The translations under genes were made by a program, and so were the position numbers. Positions 1 through 9,330 of a stretch of DNA of 32,000 nt are shown in pieces. The DNA is from Candidatus Kuenenia stuttgartensis. GTDB taxonomy: Bacteria > Planctomycetota > Brocadiia > Brocadiales > Brocadiaceae. Location: NCBI RefSeq assembly GCF_900232105.1, contig NZ_LT934425.1, positions 2,640,001-2,672,000 of the forward strand, read 5' to 3'. Positions within the stretch are counted from its first letter, which is position 1. The number at the start of each line of letters is the position of its first letter. Below the pieces are notes generated by a model. That model was not told the DNA's origin. It ran no database searches and was given only the letters and a program-made list of their open reading frames with translations.

Positions 1-62
1 TTCATAATTTATTAAGTACCAATTTAACAGTAACTTAAATACTGTGAACGGTTACGGTTTTA

Positions 63-273
63 GTAACACTTTCGTTTTTTGAAGAATTCCAATAACAGCG
101 CGACTTGCCGTATTAAAAAGGTAAAAAGGATGGTATAGAGGCGGAGCATTTGCTGTAAACGGATGTTGTTCGTTCCTCACTTGAAACACCTAAGCCCACT
201 AAATTCAAATAGTGCGACGGACCTCGTCACACTACAAAGGACTTTTTCCCGTTTCAAAAGGCTAAGGTGTTAC
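63..273. repeat. MITE-like composite inverted-repeat element, family 1 (GTAACAC...GTTTTTTGAARAATTCCAA termini)
   Basis: The left end GTAACACTTTCGTTTTTTGAAGAATTCCAATAA (63-95) and right end TTTCAAAAGGCTAAGGTGTTAC (252-273) are imperfect inverted repeats. The interior has a half copy of the GGCGRAGCATTTGCTGTAAA arm (138-160) and a TAGTGCGACG/CGTCACACTA hairpin (about 208-236). Both modules recur at 17600-17734, 31252-31335 and 31900-32000. Confidence 0.5.
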
Positions 274-496
274 AGGTTTTATGATTGTTCCTGCGTGGTT
301 TTTGTAGTTATTGGCAATTGCAGCAAGCAATATTCAGTATACTTTCGTTTACATATTTGTCAAGAAAATGTAAATATAGGTTTACACATGGGAGGGTATT
401 TTGTATCATAGTGTTGTCGTTGCACCAAAATACTTAAGACAATGAGAAAAGGCATTAATCGATTTACTTATTTTCAATAAAAGGTAATCACTCAAA

Positions 497-1051
497 ATGA
501 AAAAATACATTTCTTTTATCGCCTTTGTAATAAGTCTGTCTTTTTTATTAACGGGATGTACAGGGTTTTCCAAAAAAATTAACGAAATCCAAAAGGAACA
601 AGAAGAACATGCTGCACTCGTTAATAAGAAGATTCAAGACCATGGGCAAATACTTTCAAATTTACAATCTTCCTGCCAAAATATTGAAGGACAAATTGAA
701 GAACTTTCACAAAAAGCCACTAATACGGACAGCGATTATTCAAAACTTCAAACAGCACTGGATACCCTCAATAATAAAATTGAGACAAGAGGTAATTTCC
801 TTGATACTATTTACCCGAAAATCCAAAAACGCATCGATGATCTTGAAATGAAGGTAAATACCCTTCTCGAGATAGAGCATGATTTACAAACTAAGATTAC
901 CGCACTTCAATCACAGTTGTCTGATATCTCGTCTGAAACAAAACAATATGATACTAGTTATGATGAGCTGGGCTACTCGAATAGGTGGCTAAGAAACCTT
1001 TCTAATAAAAAAGGGCAACAGGAGGAGGTTCAGAAACAAGAAAGGAAATAG
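497..1051 (+). CDS. Lipoprotein, coiled-coil rich, function unknown
   Basis: 184-aa ORF. The N-terminus MKKYISFIAFVISLSFLLTGC has a hydrophobic core and an L-T-G-C lipobox. The rest is Q/E/K/L-rich with heptad-like spacing. I recognise no enzymatic motif. Confidence 0.7.
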   Translation: MKKYISFIAFVISLSFLLTGCTGFSKKINEIQKEQEEHAALVNKKIQDHGQILSNLQSSCQNIEGQIEELSQKATNTDSDYSKLQTALDTLNNKIETRGNFLDTIYPKIQKRIDDLEMKVNTLLEIEHDLQTKITALQSQLSDISSETKQYDTSYDELGYSNRWLRNLSNKKGQQEEVQKQERK

Positions 1052-1220
1052 TGGGGAAGAACTAACGGAATAGAAAGGAAGATAACGAGGTCACACATTA
1101 GAAGGTTTTAAAATAAAACCTGACTTAATAGGATTTTCATATAGCACTAAGACACTTTTAAGCCGATTTCGGGGCAGAAACTCGATGGACGATTTTTGTT
1201 TTTGTCCGTCAACGAATAGA

Positions 1221-1262
1221 CCGCACAATGACAGAGCAATATCGTTGTGCGGCCTTTTTTTT
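1221..1262 (+). terminator. Rho-independent terminator candidate
   Basis: CCGCACAA (1221-1228) pairs with TTGTGCGG (1245-1252) across a 16-nt loop, followed by CC and a T8 run (1255-1262). It lies about 170 nt downstream of the lipoprotein stop. Confidence 0.55.
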
Positions 1263-1595
1263 GGTTTGCATATTTGCGATATTTGCGTTAGCCCGACTTT
1301 CGCAACTCAATGGGTAGATAAATCGCTAAGCCAGTAAATACAAGAGGTCCTCTGCTCCGGTGCAAGGGTCATCGGCGCAGATAAGCCCCTCGATATATTT
1401 ACTATGGAGACAAACATGGCGTCCATTTCGCCACTATTTATCCAACATACCGCCAGTCCTTATGTTTAAATTTAAAGAGAAGGATATTTGATTGAAGCAT
1501 TAGTTGTTGTACGTCTCTAATTATGTGAGAATTAGCCGGTCAAGTGAATGCCCCAATTATCAATATTTAATATGTGACTCTAAAAATCCCCTAAA

Positions 1596-1847
1596 ATGAA
1601 TTTAAGTTTCAATACAAAACTAGCAGAAGGATATTCTAGCAATTCGCAAATTGCAAGAGTATTAACTGAAAATTGGGTTAAAGAAAATTCTTATTGTCCT
1701 TGTTGTGGTAATTTTCCATTGAGTGAATTTAAAAACAATAGCCCTGTAGCTGTCTTTTATTGTCTTAAATGCAGCGAAGAATTTGAATTGAAAGGAAATA
1801 GACTCGAAGTGTCTCCTGAATTTGCTCAGGTTTGCGTTGTGGCTTAA
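1596..1847 (+). pseudogene. N-terminal fragment of a DpnI-like (Dam-replacing family) methyl-dependent restriction endonuclease
   Basis: The 83-aa ORF reads ...YSSNSQIARVLTENWVKENSYCPCCGNFPLSEFKNNSPVAVFYCLKCSEEFELKG. This tracks the DpnI N-terminus as I remember it (...YKSNSQKARILTEDWVYRQSYCPNCGNNPL..FENNRPVADFYC..CSEEFELKS). The ORF ends after about 80 of about 250 expected residues. The PVAD aspartate is Val here. Confidence 0.55.
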
Positions 1848-1940
1848 ACTATCATGTGATAGTAATTTTAATTTTCCATGCGGATAGAAGTGATAGTTCC
1901 AACATCAGCCAACATGGCACCGTCTTTGTCCCAATGATAA

Positions 1941-2378
1941 CTACCCTCTTATGCACAAGACGGGGCAAGGGGCATTTCTTATCACATTCTCTGTCACGCT
2001 GCCAATAAACATATGAGAAATGCCCGTACGGCCGTGAGTACCCATAACTATAAGATCTACCCCCACATCGCGGGCTGCTTTTAAAATCTCTTCGAAAGGA
2101 ACACCCGCTCTCATCAGTATTTCAACATTTATACGATGCCTTATTTCTTCAGGAATACTGCTCCTCAATTTCTGTTCTATCTCTGCATCCGTTTCCGCAG
2201 TACGGTTTAACTCAGCGTCAAATTTAAGCCCGCCATAATCAGAGGTATGCTCTTCATGGACATGCATAAGATAAAGCACGGCAGAGTCCTTTATTGCCAA
2301 TTTCTCCGCATATGCAAGCGCATTCATGGAACAATCTGAATAATCTATGGGACAAAGAATTTTCTGATAGTGAATCAT
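1941..2378 (-). CDS. Universal stress protein (UspA family)
   Basis: 145 aa. The C-terminal nucleotide-binding motif G-x2-G-x9-G-S reads GTHGRTGISHMFIGSV. The start lies 16 nt downstream of the antiporter stop on the same strand. Confidence 0.85.
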   Translation of the reverse strand: MIHYQKILCPIDYSDCSMNALAYAEKLAIKDSAVLYLMHVHEEHTSDYGGLKFDAELNRTAETDAEIEQKLRSSIPEEIRHRINVEILMRAGVPFEEILKAARDVGVDLIVMGTHGRTGISHMFIGSVTENVIRNAPCPVLCIRG

Positions 2379-2394
2379 TTTTATCTCGGAGTAT

Positions 2395-5300
2395 TCAGTT
2401 TAACACTGCCCCTTCTAATTCCTTTTTTCTTTTAGTAACAGGAAGAATCTCAGGTGAACAGCCTTTCTTTAGCAAGATGTTTCTTAAAAGAGAGGGGCAT
2501 ATGATGGAAGTAAATACAATTGCCATAATAACAGAAGAAAATACCGTATCACTTAACATTCCCATATCCCTGCCAAGTCCTGCCAGAATTAATGTCCCCT
2601 CCATCTTTGTCGCCATCCCTATGCCTATGGCCAGACGGTTTATACCTTTCTCAATCGGGCAAACGCTGCAAAACATCTTTCCGATAACGGCAGCGCCTGT
2701 TATGGCAAGGCCGAGGAGGAGGGCATTTAGATTGAAAAAACTCCCCAGTTCTACCTGCGCCCCCACCCGAACAAAAAGTATCGGTACAAGGAGCATATAA
2801 AATGGTCTTATAAACGATTCAACATTACGATGCTCCTTATCATCAGAGTTCCTTAGCTTCACATTCCGCAGGAATAAGCCTGCAACAAATGCGCCTATTA
2901 CCGTGTGGAGTCCTACAGACCCAAACATAAAGACTAATAAAAGTGATAAAATTACCACTATGGGTATATTTAAACCCTCCGTAAGCCTTTTCGTGAGAAA
3001 ATTCCCAAACTTATCACCATATTTTACGATAACAATCAAACTGATTATCAGAGAAGTGATTGCTACGCCAAAGCTGAGGGACATACCTACGAGAGAACCT
3101 CCTCCTTTTACAACAAATCCACTTACTACACCGAAGGTTAAAATTACAATAATATCGGTAAGAATAGTAGCACCGGCCATTACCCTTCCTTCCAGGGTAT
3201 TTATTGCCTTTAATTCGCTCAAAACCGCAAGTAATAATCCGGTACTCGAATTACAAAGAACGATTGCCAAAAGAAGTTTCGTGCCGCTTGAGATATCCGG
3301 AAGGAGAAAATGCCCAACCATAAGTCCCAGTCCTGCAGGGGCTATTATACCGCCCAAACATACCAGGAGAGAAGATGTTCCTACCCGTAATAATGCCCTG
3401 AGGTCTGTATTGAGACCAGCGGTAAAAAGAAGTATCAACGTTCCAAAGTATGATATCATCTTTACGAATGGCATAGTCCTGAGAAAATCGAAAAAATCCC
3501 ATCCGGTAAAGGTGATGACGTTACCCAGTATCATTCCCACTATCAGCTTTCCTACTACAGCAGGAAGCCGCAACCTCCTTGCCAGCCATTCTGCTATCTT
3601 GGCGGCGATAAGTATTATGGCGACGGCAAGGATTACCGCATGGGTTGGATCTTTATGCCATATCTCCCAGCCATTACCTGAATCTTTCCCTTTTTTCACT
3701 GCGGCTATGCGGCGTTCTCCTGAAGCTATTACCGTTGTGGATTCACCAGCATCCTTTCTCGGCGGTTCCGTATCTCTATCTTCCTTCCCCTGTAAAAAAC
3801 CTTCAAGAGGCGTAGAAGGCAACCTCTCCACGGAGGCATTTGGGGAGGACTTACTTCCTCCATAAGGCGACGGCTCCTCCTTTTCTCCTGTAATCAGTGA
3901 TTCTTCCACGTCAACGGATGCAGCGGAATATGTCGGCGTAGGTGCAGGCGCAGGCGTGTCGGAGAGGACACTTTTTTCTTCTGTATCTCTGTGATTTTCC
4001 GTAAGAATACTATGCTGCGGCGGAACTTCCCCTATTGATGATTCATCTCTTGTATGCTCTTCTGTTCCATGAGGAGTTTCGTTTTCAATAGGAATCGCCT
4101 GAGATAATTCTCCTTCCGGCGATGGCGTGTGGATTTCTCTTTCTTCCTCAATCAAAGATTGCCCATGGACAGTGGGTGTAACAGGTAGAATCGGCATTGG
4201 TGTAACAAGTGTATTATCTTGTGCCGTGGTATCCGAAAGTGCCTCTTTTGCAAGAATATCAGTATCGCTGCGACTCCCTGTAGTGATGGCATGCTGTGGC
4301 GGAACCTCTTTTATTGATGATTCTTCTTCAGGATGCTCTTCTGTTCCATGAGGAGTTTCGTTTTCAATAGGAATCGCCTGAGATAATTCTCCTTCCGGCG
4401 ATGGCGTGTGGATTTCCCTTTCTTCCTCAATCAAAGATTGCCCATGGACAGTGGGTGTAACAGGTAGAATCGGCATTGGTGTAACAAGTGTATTATCTTG
4501 TGCCGTGGTATCCGAAAGTGCCTCTTTTGCAAGAATATCAGTATCGCTGCGACTCCCTGTAGTGATGGCATGCTGTGGCGGAACCTCTTTTATTGATGAT
4601 TCTTCTTCAGGATGCTCTTCTGTTCCATGAGGAGTTTCGTTTTCAATAGGAATCGCCTGAGATAATTCTCCTTCCGGCGATGGCGTGTGGATTTCCCTTT
4701 CTTCCTCAATCAAAGATTGCTCATGGCCAGTGGGTGTAACAGGCAGAATAGGCATTGGTGTAGCAATGGTATTATCTTGTGCTGTGGTATCCGAAAGTGC
4801 CTCTTTTGCAAGAATATCAGTATCGCTGCGACTTTCTGTAGTGATGGCATGCTGTGGTGGAACCTCTTTTATTGATGATTCTTCTCCGGGATGCTCTTCT
4901 GTTGCATGAGGATCTCTTCTCGCAATAGGAATGGCCTGAGATAATTCTCCTTCTGGCGATGGTGTATGGATTTCTTTTTCTTCTTCAACCAAAGATTGCC
5001 CATAACCAGTGGGTGTAACAGAGGGAATCGGTGTTGGCGTAGCTACAATATTATCTCGCCCTGTGGTATCCGAAAGCGCCTCTTCTGCGTGAACAATCGG
5101 CCGGTCATCTTTATTGGTGTGTGCTATTTTCTGCGAATACTTATTTTCTGCATGTTCAGAAGTATAGGGTTCTTCTTTTTCAGTTGTGATAACATCGCTA
5201 TTACTATTCGGCGTCTGAATACCGACGTCTCTCATATCAACCGTTGTGGGGGATGGGTGTTCTATAACAGGCGTTTGAATGGGTTGATTGTCCCCAGCAA

Positions 5301-5487
5301 TAGTTTGTGTCCCATTTTCTTCTACTGCTAAAGAAACCCTTTCTTTTTGAGTGTCGGCATGAATTGGTTGTGAATCGTTGGAAGGTTCCAAATGCTTCGC
5401 TTCCAACACTGGCGCACCTAACATATCGGTACAATACAGGGAGATGAATACTATCAGAAAAACCAGGCTGGATTTGTAGCTACTCAT
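2395..5487 (-). CDS. Cation:proton antiporter (CPA2/Kef-type Na_H_Exchanger membrane domain) with a signal peptide and a ~575-aa acidic repeat ectodomain
   Basis: 1030 aa. The N-terminus MSSYKSSLVFLIVFISLYCTDMLGAP looks like a signal peptide. Residues ~30-606 are E/D/T/P/H-rich with four 93-aa repeats. Residues 607-1030 (DNA 2395-3669) are polytopic and open with the typical exchanger start ...ILAVAIILIAAKIAEWLARRLRLPAVVGKLIVGMILGN. There is no C-terminal RCK/KTN domain. Confidence 0.85.
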   Translation of the reverse strand: MSSYKSSLVFLIVFISLYCTDMLGAPVLEAKHLEPSNDSQPIHADTQKERVSLAVEENGTQTIAGDNQPIQTPVIEHPSPTTVDMRDVGIQTPNSNSDVITTEKEEPYTSEHAENKYSQKIAHTNKDDRPIVHAEEALSDTTGRDNIVATPTPIPSVTPTGYGQSLVEEEKEIHTPSPEGELSQAIPIARRDPHATEEHPGEESSIKEVPPQHAITTESRSDTDILAKEALSDTTAQDNTIATPMPILPVTPTGHEQSLIEEEREIHTPSPEGELSQAIPIENETPHGTEEHPEEESSIKEVPPQHAITTGSRSDTDILAKEALSDTTAQDNTLVTPMPILPVTPTVHGQSLIEEEREIHTPSPEGELSQAIPIENETPHGTEEHPEEESSIKEVPPQHAITTGSRSDTDILAKEALSDTTAQDNTLVTPMPILPVTPTVHGQSLIEEEREIHTPSPEGELSQAIPIENETPHGTEEHTRDESSIGEVPPQHSILTENHRDTEEKSVLSDTPAPAPTPTYSAASVDVEESLITGEKEEPSPYGGSKSSPNASVERLPSTPLEGFLQGKEDRDTEPPRKDAGESTTVIASGERRIAAVKKGKDSGNGWEIWHKDPTHAVILAVAIILIAAKIAEWLARRLRLPAVVGKLIVGMILGNVITFTGWDFFDFLRTMPFVKMISYFGTLILLFTAGLNTDLRALLRVGTSSLLVCLGGIIAPAGLGLMVGHFLLPDISSGTKLLLAIVLCNSSTGLLLAVLSELKAINTLEGRVMAGATILTDIIVILTFGVVSGFVVKGGGSLVGMSLSFGVAITSLIISLIVIVKYGDKFGNFLTKRLTEGLNIPIVVILSLLLVFMFGSVGLHTVIGAFVAGLFLRNVKLRNSDDKEHRNVESFIRPFYMLLVPILFVRVGAQVELGSFFNLNALLLGLAITGAAVIGKMFCSVCPIEKGINRLAIGIGMATKMEGTLILAGLGRDMGMLSDTVFSSVIMAIVFTSIICPSLLRNILLKKGCSPEILPVTKRKKELEGAVLN
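3967..5082 (-). repeat. In-frame tandem repeat, 4 x 279 bp (93 aa), inside the antiporter ectodomain
   Basis: The unit is EALSDTTAQDNTLVTPMPILPVTPTVHGQSLIEEEREIHTPSPEGELSQAIPIENETPHGTEEHPEEESSIKEVPPQHAITTGSRSDTDILAK. Antisense shadow ORFs at 4127, 4406 and 4685 sit exactly 279 nt apart, and two of them have identical 74-aa translations. The outer copies are more diverged. Confidence 0.9.
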
Positions 5488-5748
5488 GAAAGCATTGTGG
5501 GCTAGAGAACTTTCTGCGAGGATAGAATTAAGAACAACAGAATCAATATATTTACATTATAAAACAGGAAACATCTTAAATACAGAAAAAGTTTCGCAAG
5601 GGTTCAATATATTTTTAATTGGGGTATTTACCTGAATTTGTTAAGTATTGCTAAATATTTTAATGATTTTGTGTTTTATGCCCTTGATAAATTAATTTTA
5701 GATGATTATACTATGTCTCATTTCTTTGTTGGAAGGGGGTATTATTTC

Positions 5749-5901
5749 TTACGATTTAACTTTCGTTAAAACCTTTTGACTTTTATCAAATGTCGTCGGT
5801 TCTATTTGTGTTGCCTTTTGAAGAAGCCGGTAGAAAAGCTTGCCGCGATATTTCGAGGTTATCCGGTTGAATCTAAACGTATACTCAAAATAATACAATC
5901 C
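5749..5901 (-). pseudogene. Possible C-terminal remnant of an IS1595-family (ISXO2-like) transposase
   Basis: A 50-codon open frame reads GLYYFEYTFRFNRITSKYRGKLFYRLLQKATQIEPTTFDKSQKVLTKVKS. The E(F/Y)xFR(F/Y)NRR....R..LF..LL pattern matches my memory of the IS1595-family C-terminus. There is no upstream DDE domain. It sits at the junction between the two duplicated modules. Confidence 0.35.
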
Positions 5902-5938
5902 TCAATCTGCAATTTGCCGACTGTAGATTACTGACAGC
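5890..5938 (+). repeat. Degenerate heptamer tandem array (AATCTGC-like)
   Basis: The register reads ATAATAC|AATCCTC|AATCTGC|AATTTGC|CGACTGT|AGATTAC|TGACAGC, ending just before the USP2 stop at 5940. The same heptamer family occurs at 12653-12710 (opposite strand) and 25372-25413. Confidence 0.5.
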
Positions 5939-5939
5939 C

Positions 5940-6378
5940 TTACCCCCTTATGCACAATACAGGACAAGGGGCGTTTCTTATCACCTTCTCTGCCACACTA
6001 CCAATAAACATATGGGAAATGCCCGTACGGCCGTGAGTACCCATAACTATAAGATCTATCCCAATATCTCTGGCTGCTTTTAAAATCCCTTCACAGGTGT
6101 CCCCCGCCCTCATCAATATTTCAATATTTATACAGCACCTTATTTCTTCTGGAATACTGCTAATAAATTTCTGTTCTATCTCTGCATCCGTTTCCTCGGT
6201 ACGGTTTAACTCCGTGTCAAATTTAAGCCCGCCATAATCAGAGGCATGTTCTTCCTTTACATAAATAAGATAAAGGCCTGGCAGTTTCCCTTGTTGCCAA
6301 TTTTGCCGCATATGCAAGCGCATTCATGGCACAATTTAAATAATCAACGGGACAAAGGATTTTCCGATAGTGAATCAT
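5940..6378 (-). pseudogene. Universal stress protein paralog with an apparent +1 frameshift
   Basis: The reverse strand from the ATG at 6378 gives MIHYRKILCPVDYLNCAMNALAYAAKLA..., parallel to USP1 MIHYQKILCPIDYSDCSMNALAYAEKLA. The rest (LYLIYVKEEHASDYGG...GTHGRTGISHMFIGSV) is in another frame (ORF 5940-6323). The span is 439 nt versus 438 nt in copy 1. The extra base lies within 6276-6295 (20 nt versus 19 nt in copy 1). Confidence 0.7.
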
Positions 6379-6380
6379 TT

Positions 6381-8879
6381 TTACCCCTGTGTATTCAGTT
6401 TAACGCAGCCCTTTTTAATTCCTTCTTCTGCTTTTGCAACAGAGACGATGTCTTGTGCGTCGCCCTTCTTCTGCAGGAATGCCCTTAAAAAATAAGGACA
6501 TATGATAGAGGTAAGCACGATTACCATAATAGCAGAGGAAAATACGGCGCTGTTAAATATTTCCATATCTCTGCCTATTCCTGCAAGTATTAGAGTCCCT
6601 TCCATCTTTATCGCCATACCTATGCCTATAGTCAAACGATTTACTCCGCGCTCAATCGGGCAAACGCTGCAAAACATCTTTCCTGCAATAGCGGCACCCG
6701 TTATAGCAAGTCCGAGGATCGCTGTATTTACATGTAAAAAACTCATTAGATCAACCTGCGCCCCCACTTTAACAAAAAGTATTGGCACTATAATCTTATA
6801 AAATGGCCTTATAAAAGATTCAATAGTACGATATTCTTCTTCGTCGAATTCGTCGGAATCACTTAGTTTTACATTCCGCAGGAATAACCCTGCAACAAAT
6901 GCCCCTATTACTGTATGAAGCCCAATTGTTCCAGTCATAAAGGCTAACAAGAGGCACAAAACTATTACAATAGGAATATTTAATCCCTCTTTAGCTCTTT
7001 TCGTTAAAAAGCTGCCGAATTTTTCGCTATATCTCAAAATAATTACTAACGCAATGGTAAGGAAAGAAATTGCGATACACACGCTAACTAAAATATGCAG
7101 GAAAGAATTCCCTTCACGAGCGACAAATCCGCTAACGAGGCCGAAGGATAAAATAACCATGATCTCTGTAAGAACGCCGGCACCGATGAGTATCCTTCCT
7201 TCCAGGGTATTCATAGCCTTTAATTCGCCTAAAATTGCCGTTAATAATCCCATTCCTGTACTGGCCAAAATAATTGCTAAAAGCATCTTTGTACCATTTG
7301 AGGCATCAGGAAGGAAGAAATGCCCTGCCACAAGACCCAGTCCGGCAGGGACGATAATACCGCCCATGCACACCAGTAAAGAGGAAGCCCCTGCCCGTAA
7401 TAACATCCTGATATCGGTATGAAGCCCTGCGGTAAAGAGAAGTATCAACGTTCCAAAATATGATATCATCTTTAAAAAGGGCATTGTCTTGAGAAATTCG
7501 AAAAAATCCCCTCCGGTAAAGATATAGATATTGCCTAACACTAGTCCTGCCAATAGATTACCCACTACCGAAGGCAACTGAACGTTTTTTGCCAGCAATT
7601 CTCCTATCTTGGCAGCAATAAGTATTATGGCGATGGCAAGGATCACACTATGGGATGGATCTTTGTGCAATATATCCCAGGCAGGCCTTGAAACTCCCTC
7701 TTCTTTCACAGTGTCTAAGCGGTGTTCTTCTGAAGCTATTCCTGTTGTTGATTCATCGGTATCCTTTGTTGGCAGTCCAGCATCTCTCTCTTCATTCACC
7801 TGAGAAGAACCTTCAATATGCGTAAACGGCAACAACTCCAAGGGGATAGTTGGCGCTCCGCGTTCTACATCATGCGATGGCTTATCCTTTTCTATCGGAA
7901 CCAGTGATTCTTCTGTGTGAGCGGATGCAGCAGGATATTCCGGAGTTGGAACAGGCATGGCGGAGATGGCGCCTTTTTCTTCAGCATCTCCCGGAGTCGC
8001 TGTAATTATAGCATGCTGCGGCTCAATTTCCTCTATCGATGACTCATCTCCGGGATGCTCTTCTGTTCCATGAGGAGTTTCGTTTTCAATAGGAATCGCC
8101 TGAGATAATTCTACTTCCGGAGATGGCGTGTGGATTTCCCTTTCTTCCTCAATCAAAGACTGCCCATGGACAGTGGGTGTAACAGGTAGAATCGGCATTG
8201 GTGTAACAAGTGTATTATCTTGTGCCGTGGTATCCGAAAGTGCCTCTTCTGCAAGAATATCAGTATCGCTGCGACTCTCTGTAGTGATGGCATGCTGTGG
8301 CGGAACCTCTTTTATCGATGATTCTTCTTCAAGATGCTCTTCTGTTGCATGCGGAGCGCTTATCTCAATAGGAATAGCCTGAGATAATTCTCCCTCTGGC
8401 GATGGTGTTGGTGTATGGATTTCCTTTTCTTTTTCAACCAAAGAGTGCCCATAGCCCGTAGGTATAACAGAGAGAATCGGTGTTGGCGTAGCCATGATAT
8501 TATCTTGCTCTGTGGTATCCGAAAGCGCCTCTTCTGTGGGAACAATCGGCCGGTCATCTTCATTGGGGTGTGCTATTTTCTGCGGATACTTATTTTCTTC
8601 ATGTTCAGAAATAATATAAGGTTCTTCTTTTTCTGTTATGATATTGTTGCTATTACTATCCGGCGTTTGAATGGGCTTATTGCCCCCTGCAGTAGTCTGT
8701 GTACCATTTTCTTCTACCGTTAAAGAATCTCTTTCTTTTTGAGTGTCGATATGGATCGATTGTGAATCATTGGAAGGTTCCAAATGCTTCGCTTCTAATT
8801 CCGGCGTACCTAACATAATAACACAGAACAGGGATATGAAAACTATAAGAAAAGCCAGGCTGGATTTGTAGCTACTCAT
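6381..8879 (-). CDS. Paralogous cation:proton antiporter (CPA2/Kef-type) with a signal peptide and a shorter acidic repeat ectodomain
   Basis: 832 aa with the same architecture as 2395-5487. It has the signal peptide MSSYKSSLAFLIVFISLFCVIMLG, an ectodomain with two repeat units, and a 432-aa membrane domain. By my hand count 71 of the first 100 aligned membrane-domain residues match copy 1. Confidence 0.85.
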   Translation of the reverse strand: MSSYKSSLAFLIVFISLFCVIMLGTPELEAKHLEPSNDSQSIHIDTQKERDSLTVEENGTQTTAGGNKPIQTPDSNSNNIITEKEEPYIISEHEENKYPQKIAHPNEDDRPIVPTEEALSDTTEQDNIMATPTPILSVIPTGYGHSLVEKEKEIHTPTPSPEGELSQAIPIEISAPHATEEHLEEESSIKEVPPQHAITTESRSDTDILAEEALSDTTAQDNTLVTPMPILPVTPTVHGQSLIEEEREIHTPSPEVELSQAIPIENETPHGTEEHPGDESSIEEIEPQHAIITATPGDAEEKGAISAMPVPTPEYPAASAHTEESLVPIEKDKPSHDVERGAPTIPLELLPFTHIEGSSQVNEERDAGLPTKDTDESTTGIASEEHRLDTVKEEGVSRPAWDILHKDPSHSVILAIAIILIAAKIGELLAKNVQLPSVVGNLLAGLVLGNIYIFTGGDFFEFLKTMPFLKMISYFGTLILLFTAGLHTDIRMLLRAGASSLLVCMGGIIVPAGLGLVAGHFFLPDASNGTKMLLAIILASTGMGLLTAILGELKAMNTLEGRILIGAGVLTEIMVILSFGLVSGFVAREGNSFLHILVSVCIAISFLTIALVIILRYSEKFGSFLTKRAKEGLNIPIVIVLCLLLAFMTGTIGLHTVIGAFVAGLFLRNVKLSDSDEFDEEEYRTIESFIRPFYKIIVPILFVKVGAQVDLMSFLHVNTAILGLAITGAAIAGKMFCSVCPIERGVNRLTIGIGMAIKMEGTLILAGIGRDMEIFNSAVFSSAIMVIVLTSIICPYFLRAFLQKKGDAQDIVSVAKAEEGIKKGCVKLNTQG
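7968..8531 (-). repeat. In-frame tandem repeat, 2 units (95 + 93 aa), homologous to the 279-bp repeat of the paralog
   Basis: Unit 2 (EALSDTTAQDNTLVTPMPILPVTPTVHGQSLIEEEREIHTPSPEVELSQAIPIENETPHGTEEHP...) matches unit 3 of the paralog at 64 of 65 residues. The antisense ORF at 8128 shares its first 40 aa with those at 4127 and 4406. Confidence 0.85.
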
Positions 8880-9033
8880 AAAAGCATTATAGGCGAAAAA
8901 ACTTTCTGCATGGATAGAATTAAGAACAACAGCGTCAATATATTTGCATTATAAAACAGGAAACATCTTAAATACAGAAAAAGTTTAGCAAGGGTTCAAT
9001 ATATTTTTAATTGGGGTATTTACCTGAATTTGT

Positions 9034-9160
9034 GTAACTATTCAGCGTAAACGATACACGGCTCGTTCCCAAACCTTGTACTGAACATAGTGAAGTATCT
9101 GTTTGGGAACGAGTTGCGCTCTTATCTCCGGTAGTTTAATAAATTACACTGAATAGTTAC
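9034..9160. mobile_element. 127-bp MITE (family 2) with 12-bp terminal inverted repeats and an 8-bp target-site duplication
   Basis: The termini are GTAACTATTCAG (9034-9045) and CTGAATAGTTAC (9149-9160). GAATTTGT flanks it at 9026-9033 and 9161-9168. The paralogous upstream region at 5628-5650 reads ...CCTGAATTTGTTAAGTATTGC with one GAATTTGT and no insert, so it is an empty site. There is an internal hairpin CGTTCCCAAAC...GTTTGGGAACG. Confidence 0.8.
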
Positions 9161-9302
9161 GAATTTGTTAAGTATTGCTAAATATTTTAATGATTTTGTG
9201 TTTTATGCCCTTGATAAATTGATTTTAGATGATTATACTATGTCTCATTTCTTTGTTGGAAAGGGGTATTATTTCTTACTGTTTAACTTTCGTTAAAACT
9301 TT

Positions 9303-9330
9303 TTGACTTTTTCATAAATAGTTCTATAAT
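9303..9330 (+). promoter_or_regulatory. Sigma70-type promoter candidate for nuoA
   Basis: TTGACT (9303-9308), a 16-nt spacer, then TATAAT (9325-9330). The nuoA ATG is at 9340, only 9 nt after the -10 box, which implies a leaderless or near-leaderless transcript. Confidence 0.55.

Follow-up and report, generated by a model that had tools for sequence, protein, structure and literature searches.

The antiporter locus and its repeat units

We analyzed a window of 32,000 nucleotides (nt) from the complete genome (4,406,153 bp) of the anammox bacterium Candidatus Kuenenia stuttgartiensis MBR1 (G000:C1:2640001-2672000), in which an antiporter gene with an acidic, repeat-bearing N-terminal region lies next to a paralog with fewer repeats. 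In MBR1, three tandem cassettes each combine an antiporter gene with a gene for a universal stress protein (Usp), and the third of these, cassette 0, is located directly to the left of the window. The antiporters of cassettes 0, 1 and 2 are here called genes 0, 1 and 2; their order is gene 2, gene 1, gene 0. By position as well as by sequence, gene 2 is the ortholog of the single gene present in other Kuenenia lineages. The genes of main interest are:

2395-5487, minus strand: gene 1, 1030 amino acids (aa), with a signal peptide, an acidic ectodomain containing four 93-aa units, and a CPA2-type transporter (residues ~607-1030)
6381-8879, minus strand: gene 2, 832 aa, two units

An earlier note, made from the sequence alone, described four units of 279 nt in gene 1 and two in gene 2. 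This count was confirmed by Tandem Repeats Finder (period 279, 3.9 copies, 92% matches, 4012-5088) and by the coordinates of the individual units, except that the first unit of gene 2 measures 285 nt. Further copies of the unit were not found elsewhere in the 4.4-Mb genome. For the comparisons below, each unit was split into a head of 195 nt and a tail of 84 nt, and the first and the last units were designated type A and type B, respectively:

4807-5085, minus strand: gene 1 unit 1 (type A, putatively the ancestral first unit), 90.7% nt identity to gene 2 unit 1, with which both its head and its tail cluster
4528-4806, minus strand: gene 1 unit 2, an extra internal unit with a type-B head and a type-A tail
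4249-4527, minus strand: gene 1 unit 3, an extra internal unit with a type-B head and a type-A tail
3970-4248, minus strand: gene 1 unit 4 (type B, putatively the ancestral last unit), head 4054-4248, tail 3970-4053
8250-8534, minus strand: gene 2 unit 1, 285 nt, 95 aa, with a two-codon insertion
7971-8249, minus strand: gene 2 unit 2, 279 nt, 93 aa

The two internal units of gene 1, which had been described as almost identical in DNA, share 271 of 279 nt (97.1%) and 89 of 93 residues. Likewise, the reported match of 64 out of 65 residues between unit 2 of gene 2 and unit 3 of gene 1 is correct if the count starts at residue 2, there being two differences in the first 66 residues.

Heads and tails are related in different ways. 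The heads of units 2, 3 and 4 of gene 1 and of unit 2 of gene 2 are 93.8-99.5% alike, with the two internal heads being 95-99.5% identical to that of unit 4, and the heads of the two first units are 89.7% alike; between these two classes the identity is ~80%. The tails of the internal units, on the other hand, group with those of the two first units (92.9-100% alike within this class), to which they are 94-96% identical, against 61-63% for the tails of the last units. The latter are themselves 71.4% alike between the two genes, and the two tail classes are ~60-63% identical to each other. Because their heads and tails fall in different parental classes, the internal units are chimeric, with a head derived from the last unit and a tail from the first. 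A patch of 12 nt, the codons for TEEH, is identical in all six units and is situated just before the switch from head to tail.

Expansion from two to four units

The earlier note suggested a comparison with orthologs in related strains, and this revealed two-unit arrays in the congener G002 and in two further Kuenenia species, represented by the proteins P0009 and P0010. In G002 and the P0009 species, a single cassette is located between nuoA and anmK with conserved synteny; in the P0010 species, the contig that carries the two-unit gene ends just past the Usp gene. Because three other Kuenenia lineages have two units, the two-unit state is best regarded as ancestral.

The chimeric nature of the internal units points to an A-B array that recombined out of register by one unit, and then once more, so that the four units of gene 1 would derive from a two-unit ancestor by in-register unequal recombination. 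In this process, the first and the last units of gene 1 would have gone through two rounds of unequal recombination (or slippage), by which a 279-nt segment consisting of an A tail and a B head was triplicated. The array would thus have passed from A-B by way of A-(B/A)-B to A-(B/A)-(B/A)-B, with every exchange point placed just 3' of the TEEH patch. The tract formed by an A tail and a B head is found three times in gene 1 (4054-4332, 4333-4611 and 4612-4890) and once in gene 2 (8055-8333).

Gene conversion between genes 1 and 2

The earlier note had named uniform divergence along the gene pair as the finding that would speak against its interpretation. The identity profile is strongly non-uniform, and uniform divergence is thereby excluded. 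Two segments stand out for the similarity of the paralogs:

5488-5788, minus strand: non-coding DNA upstream of gene 1, with a second copy at 8880-9314 that is distally 98-99% identical
4054-4332, minus strand: the putatively youngest tract common to genes 1 and 2 (A tail and B head), 96-98% identical in sliding windows

The nucleotide identity between genes 1 and 2 amounts to 93% over the upstream region as a whole (98-99% distally), 86% in the N-terminus, 90% in the A head, 93% in the A tail and 97.4% in the B head. It is 71.4% in the B tail, 71.8% in the linker and 72.9% in the transporter (66% aa over the whole domain; the hand count of 71 identities among the first 100 aligned transporter residues in the earlier note was exact). 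The Usp genes of the two cassettes are 86% identical. The transporters look so different mainly because genes 1 and 2 belong to two anciently separated transporter clades, as discussed below.

The orthologs provide a reference for these values. Gene 2 and its close ortholog in the P0010 species are 94-98% identical in nucleotides everywhere but in the repeats (91-93%). The B head of gene 2 shares 92.3% of its nucleotides with this ortholog and 82.6% with that of G002, so that the paralogs are nearer to each other here than gene 2 is to its own ortholog. The adjacent B tail displays the reverse, with 97.6% identity to the P0010-species ortholog against 71.4% to gene 1.

The same heterogeneity was seen at synonymous sites. 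Estimated segment by segment with NG86, the synonymous divergence (dS) between genes 1 and 2 is 0.068 in the B head, 0.22 in unit A, 0.37 in the N-terminus, 0.38 in the B tail and linker (with a ratio of nonsynonymous to synonymous divergence, dN/dS, of ~0.9) and 1.0 in the transporter, a ~15-fold difference between the lowest value and the highest. In the ortholog control, gene 2 versus G002, dS is uniform, at 0.20-0.47 throughout. Four-fold degenerate sites differ between genes 1 and 2 at 15 of 103 positions in the 5' half versus 64 of 137 in the transporter (Fisher P 1e-7), and the corresponding proportions in the ortholog control are 0.21 versus 0.20 (P 0.87). Furthermore, a Sawyer-type test with 10,000 permutations of the polymorphic sites gave a longest run of 16 sites, compared to a permutation mean of 3.9 and a maximum of 10 (P<1e-4). 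Since synonymous and non-coding sites show the same heterogeneity and the ortholog pair does not, selection at the protein level cannot account for the profile, but recombination can.

The idea of the earlier note that the repeats are being homogenized by recombination is thus upheld in part. The dS contrast and the uniform ortholog control support recombination, and unequal crossing-over would explain the difference of four versus two units. However, the homogenization does not concern the repeats only, as the whole 5' half is similar, starting 300 nt upstream and reaching as far as the last unit's head; nor have the units as such become uniform, since the first and last types remain unlike (heads ~80%, tails ~60% identical). 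We hypothesize that a late and short conversion left genes 1 and 2 with almost the same A tail and B head, and that part of the upstream region was likewise converted to 98-99% identity. The gene 2 copy of the upstream region carries a miniature inverted-repeat transposable element (MITE):

9035-9161, strand not assigned: MITE of 127 nt, absent from the upstream region of gene 1

The element ends in inverted repeats and is flanked by a target duplication of 8 nt (GAATTTGT), and there are 69 full or partial matches to it genome-wide. Because the gene 1 copy holds the empty site (5634-5641), the element was inserted later than the homogenization of the two upstream regions. A search of Rfam with the conserved upstream regions returned nothing credible.

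A mosaic of three cassettes

The second half of gene 1 has a different affiliation than the first, as is evident from a comparison with cassette 0:

3670-4053, minus strand: B tail and linker of gene 1, ~72% nt identity to gene 2 and no similarity to gene 0
1942-3669, minus strand: tract of the transporter and Usp1, 1728 nt, 98.1% identical to cassette 0 (G000:C1:2637031-2638758; self-BLAST)
G000:C1:2637030-2639736 (L014:9030-11736): cassette 0, made up of gene 0 at L014 9484-11736 (750 aa) plus a Usp gene of 145 aa, which is intact

The similarity between cassettes 0 and 1 ends abruptly at position 3669 of the window, and the ectodomains are unrelated, that of gene 0 being acidic and non-repetitive. 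The dS between genes 1 and 0 is 0.054 in the transporter, and it is 0.033 in the Usp gene. In a maximum-likelihood tree of the transporters, gene 1, gene 0 and a protein from RBG_16_41_13 (P0013) form one clade, and gene 2, G002, P0009 and P0010 the other; both clades have 100/100 support and contain other anammox genera. The ectodomain similarities are discordant with this tree: the ectodomain of gene 0 is 49-54% identical to those of two other anammox genera and that of gene 1 is 60-63% identical to the gene 2 group, and in yet another genus (g6) similar ectodomains are attached to transporters of both clades. Because ectodomain similarity contradicts the transporter tree, we suggest that ectodomain and transporter modules have been repeatedly re-assorted in this antiporter family, and that gene 1 is itself a mosaic in which a 5' module of the gene 2 lineage was joined to an old 3' module.

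Taken together, the data are in our view best explained by modular recombination among the three cassettes combined with repeat expansion in gene 1, to which we assign a probability of about 0.8. One ancestral cassette between nuoA and anmK, comprising a CPA2 antiporter with a two-unit ectodomain and a Usp gene, would have given rise to the three tandem cassettes of MBR1, which exchange modules by homologous recombination. The 5' module of gene 1 (~300 nt of upstream sequence, the signal peptide, the N-terminal region, unit A and the B head) would come from the gene 2 lineage after its split from G002, consistent with 86-93% nt identity. The 3' module (B tail, linker, transporter and Usp) would come from the deeply separate transporter clade, and a tract of 1.73 kb covering the transporter and Usp would have become common to genes 1 and 0 at 98% identity despite their unrelated ectodomains. 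We favor the order in which the 5' half of an old paralog was overwritten by gene-2-type sequence.

Stability of the repeat number

The question of how variable the repeat number is was addressed by comparison with other assemblies. The genomes of MBR1 (PacBio, 419x; PMC5854607) and of strain CSTR1 (PacBio, 104x, 4,334,932 bp; PMC7709395) were assembled independently, and their four-unit proteins of 1030 aa are one residue apart. A contig of 1.04 Mb from a third strain also encodes four units in a protein of 1030 aa (P0018), with 16 residue differences from gene 1 of MBR1 (P0001). All 16 are located beyond residue 491 and none in the first 491 residues. This strain-level boundary at the head/tail junction of the last unit suggests either that recombination recurrently breaks at this point or that the 5' module has recently undergone a sweep. 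All recorded alleles of gene 2 have two units, and a search of 5.8 billion protein clusters yielded no allele exceeding 1030 aa.

Forms of gene 1 with two and three units are on record only in metagenome assemblies, where a collapse of the repeat is possible. The three-unit form (937 aa) is from a MEGAHIT k141 contig in ENA (L015:7065-9878). Its gene mixes transporter residues of the gene 0 and gene 1 types, and a collapse to three units is expected because units 2-4 of gene 1 contain an exact repeat of 312 nt (from the variable-site table), which is unresolvable for such an assembler. This form is therefore probably a repeat collapse combined with a chimera of paralogs. The two-unit form (844 aa; P0017; MBE7545903.1, on a 1.36-Mb contig) corresponds to P0018 minus exactly 186 residues and is otherwise identical to it, and may be either a real deletion variant or an assembly collapse. 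On balance, these observations favor a stable four-unit allele.

Alternative explanations

The most serious competitor concerns the order of events. In the reverse order, gene 1 would be a recent tandem duplicate of the whole gene 2 cassette, in which sequence from the other clade later replaced the B tail, the Usp gene and all that lies between them. A duplication junction is indeed visible, in that the sequence at 5781-5940, downstream of Usp2, is homologous to the spacer between Usp and anmK in cassette 0 and G002 and abuts the duplicated upstream region at ~5788, and the dS of the linker (0.38) is close to that of the N-terminus (0.37). However, the B tail and linker of gene 1 (3670-4053) have no donor in the genome, as the similarity to gene 0 already ends at 3669. 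Moreover, P0013, which represents a separate lineage, also pairs a repeat-type ectodomain with a gene-1-type transporter, and its linker has, as judged by eye, some residues in common with that of gene 1. We consider the reverse order possible but clearly the less probable of the two.

Several points count against the favored explanation. The order of events is ambiguous: by dS (0.38 versus 0.37), no greater age is apparent for the B tail and linker than for the N-terminus, and their low nucleotide identity is largely due to a high dN. The segments are short (65-134 codons), so that single dS values are noisy, and a dS of ~1.0 is near saturation. The site patterns with two outgroups fit either direction of conversion, and the young tract is thus not polarized. 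Gene 2 diverges more from its ortholog in the repeats than elsewhere (8.0% versus 4.4%, P 0.003), and faster evolution of the repeats is another possible reading of this difference. Finally, unequal crossing-over and replication slippage yield the same product and are indistinguishable here.

The remaining alternatives were raised in the earlier note itself. Its suggestion that the repeats are similar because of unusually strong purifying selection, without any recombination, draws on the match of 64 out of 65 residues in the B head, and would have to be reconciled with the 15-fold reduction of dS in this segment relative to the transporter, with the 98-99% identity of non-coding upstream DNA, with orthologs whose A tail and B head are 17-23% divergent and whose B head has a dN/dS of ~0.5, and with first and last unit types that are merely 60-80% alike. 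We regard it as refuted by the dS values together with the ortholog control, and accord it hardly any probability. An expansion artefact in the assembly is equally improbable: long and near-identical repeats are prone to assembly errors, and other assemblies contain the shorter forms of 937 and 844 aa, but the independently assembled proteins of MBR1 and CSTR1 are one residue apart, the third strain has four units on its 1.04-Mb contig, and the units bear distinguishing substitutions. The view that ectodomain length is a contingency-like character, with unit numbers that vary rapidly within populations, is unlikely, although not to the same degree. It could appeal to the near-identical strains recorded with two and four units (P0017 and P0018), and RecA would find good substrates in units with 97-100% identity across a few hundred nt. 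Yet four units have been kept in MBR1, CSTR1 and the strain with 16 differences, the alleles of gene 2 and the absence of longer forms among the protein clusters speak for constancy, and the three-unit form is of the kind predicted from the exact repeat of 312 nt. In addition, the unit of 279 nt is in frame and contains no simple-sequence tract, and thus lacks the hypermutable short repeat of a contingency locus.

Other features of the cassettes

The cassettes of the window also include two Usp genes:

1941-2378, minus strand: Usp1, an intact universal stress protein gene, 145 aa (PF00582, E 1e-35), with its start 16 nt past the stop codon of gene 1
5940-6378, minus strand: Usp2, a frameshifted copy with, according to the alignment, a 1-nt insertion near 6276

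The longest open reading frame left in Usp2 is 5940-6323 (127 aa). Because an identical truncated product of 127 aa was called on an independent short-read contig, Usp2 is probably a real pseudogene. In gene 2, the final ~15 residues are in another frame than in its relatives. Cassettes 1 and 0 are separated by a spacer of ~2.2 kb (window 1-1940 and L014:11737-12000), to which the single-cassette species have no counterpart and which contains an open reading frame of 184 aa (497-1051), resembling a coiled-coil lipoprotein, and several small open reading frames.

The transporter and its acidic extension

Both antiporter genes encode an N-terminal hydrophobic signal-like segment, a region rich in Glu, Thr, Pro and Ser, and a full-length Na_H_Exchanger domain (PF00999), which in gene 1 covers residues 628-1005 (E 7e-45; 153.9 bits versus a Pfam cut-off of 26.2). 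The closest solved structure is the CPA2 antiporter NapA (E 7e-26 over 386 residues, domain residues 23-408), and the top match in NCBIfam is TIGR00932, a CPA2 subfamily, with 115.5 bits and thus under the cut-off of 238.3. From these matches, the transporter appears to be a divergent member of CPA2. Pfam revealed no KTN/RCK (TrkA/RCK) domain, and ~25 residues beyond the membrane domain the protein ends. The transporter thus lacks the C-terminal regulatory domain that marks potassium efflux systems of the Kef type (KefB/KefC).

In both genes, the acidic region has an isoelectric point of ~4.4, a net charge of -57 to -72, no Trp and almost no Phe. The acidic repeat segment is probably disordered and probably extracytoplasmic, and each extra unit would add ~93 residues and roughly 15 negative charges to this aromatic-free segment rich in Glu, Thr, Pro and Ser. 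An AlphaFold2 model of gene 2, built on an alignment of seven sequences, has no predicted secondary structure in residues 23-402; its mean pLDDT is 31 throughout, the transporter included, and the model is therefore uninformative on disorder.

Relatives of the transporter are widespread, with a close homolog of the domain in 25 of the 44 genomes searched, and a scan of metagenome contigs with the ectodomain recovered no relative. Long antiporter genes (530-930 aa) are common in the family, and they combine a signal-like N-terminus and an acidic, low-complexity extension with the CPA2 domain that follows (loci L016-L027). In a genome of another genus (G017; L032:5023-10080), tandem antiporter paralogs carry unrelated in-frame ectodomain repeats of 84 nt (3.4 copies) and 150 nt (3.0 copies; 92% matches). 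Expansion of ectodomain repeats thus recurs independently within the family. The pattern of similar ectodomains and diverged transporters was sought in the tandem pair of G017 and is absent there, the transporters being 82% identical in nucleotides and the ectodomains diverged.

A more far-reaching hypothesis is that the repeat number is a truly polymorphic and selectable trait in Kuenenia populations, and that modular exchange is a recurrent adaptive mechanism across anammox genera. It is prompted by the two and four units recorded in the otherwise identical P0017 and P0018, and the in-frame repeats of 84 and 150 nt in G017 are consistent with recurrent modular exchange. If true, the repeat number would set how long and how negatively charged a polyanionic “antenna” ahead of the antiporter is. 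We consider this unlikely. The biology of the polyanionic ectodomain is the more interesting question, but a separate finding.

Implications and comparison with known systems

Our results have some practical consequences. Gene 1 should not be taken as a simple recent duplicate of gene 2, and orthology calls are needed for each module separately, because the transporter and ectodomain trees of the antiporter family disagree. Short-read assemblies at this locus probably collapse the repeat and yield chimeric paralogs, which is a warning for analyses based on metagenome-assembled genomes. To our knowledge, little is known about recombination in anammox bacteria, and the locus shows, cleanly and with good dating, how modular gene conversion was combined with unequal crossing-over in one of them, an organism that grows slowly and is not in pure culture. 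In the literature on Kuenenia, including the papers on the MBR1/CSTR1 genomes and on nutrient limitation, we found none that discusses these genes.

Both mechanisms involved are textbook knowledge, the ectopic conversion of tandem paralogs as well as the in-register unequal crossing-over within long in-frame repeats. As in the tuf genes, the rRNA operons and families of repeat-bearing surface proteins, a delimited and sharply bounded tract is more similar between the paralogs of one genome than between orthologs, and synonymous and non-coding sites have been homogenized too. What differs is that only modules are affected here, with the transporter halves of genes 1 and 2 remaining in deeply separate clades, and that gene 0 is a different partner, sharing the transporter and Usp module, which results in a three-way mosaic instead of uniform homogenization.

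Likewise, the array resembles those of the alpha C and Rib-type surface proteins of Gram-positive bacteria, in which an integer number of in-frame units is also found and the internal units are near-identical head/tail chimeras of diverged edge units. However, the repeats in Kuenenia belong to no wall-anchored adhesin but are N-terminal to a polytopic ion transporter, the acidic unit has the look of a disordered segment rather than of a folded domain, and the copy number is apparently stable between cultured strains. The membrane domain, which corresponds to PF00999 at full length, matches that of the CPA2 antiporter NapA of Thermus thermophilus (PDB 4bwz, 5bz2), whereas the Kuenenia proteins differ from NapA in that they have a cleavable-looking signal peptide and a polyanionic N-terminal extension of 290-580 residues, lack a KTN/RCK domain and are paired with a Usp gene. 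The mechanism is thus ordinary gene conversion and unequal crossing-over, and apparently no hypervariable switch, but the case is a new and unusually well-resolved instance of it, which concerns a transporter gene of an anammox bacterium.

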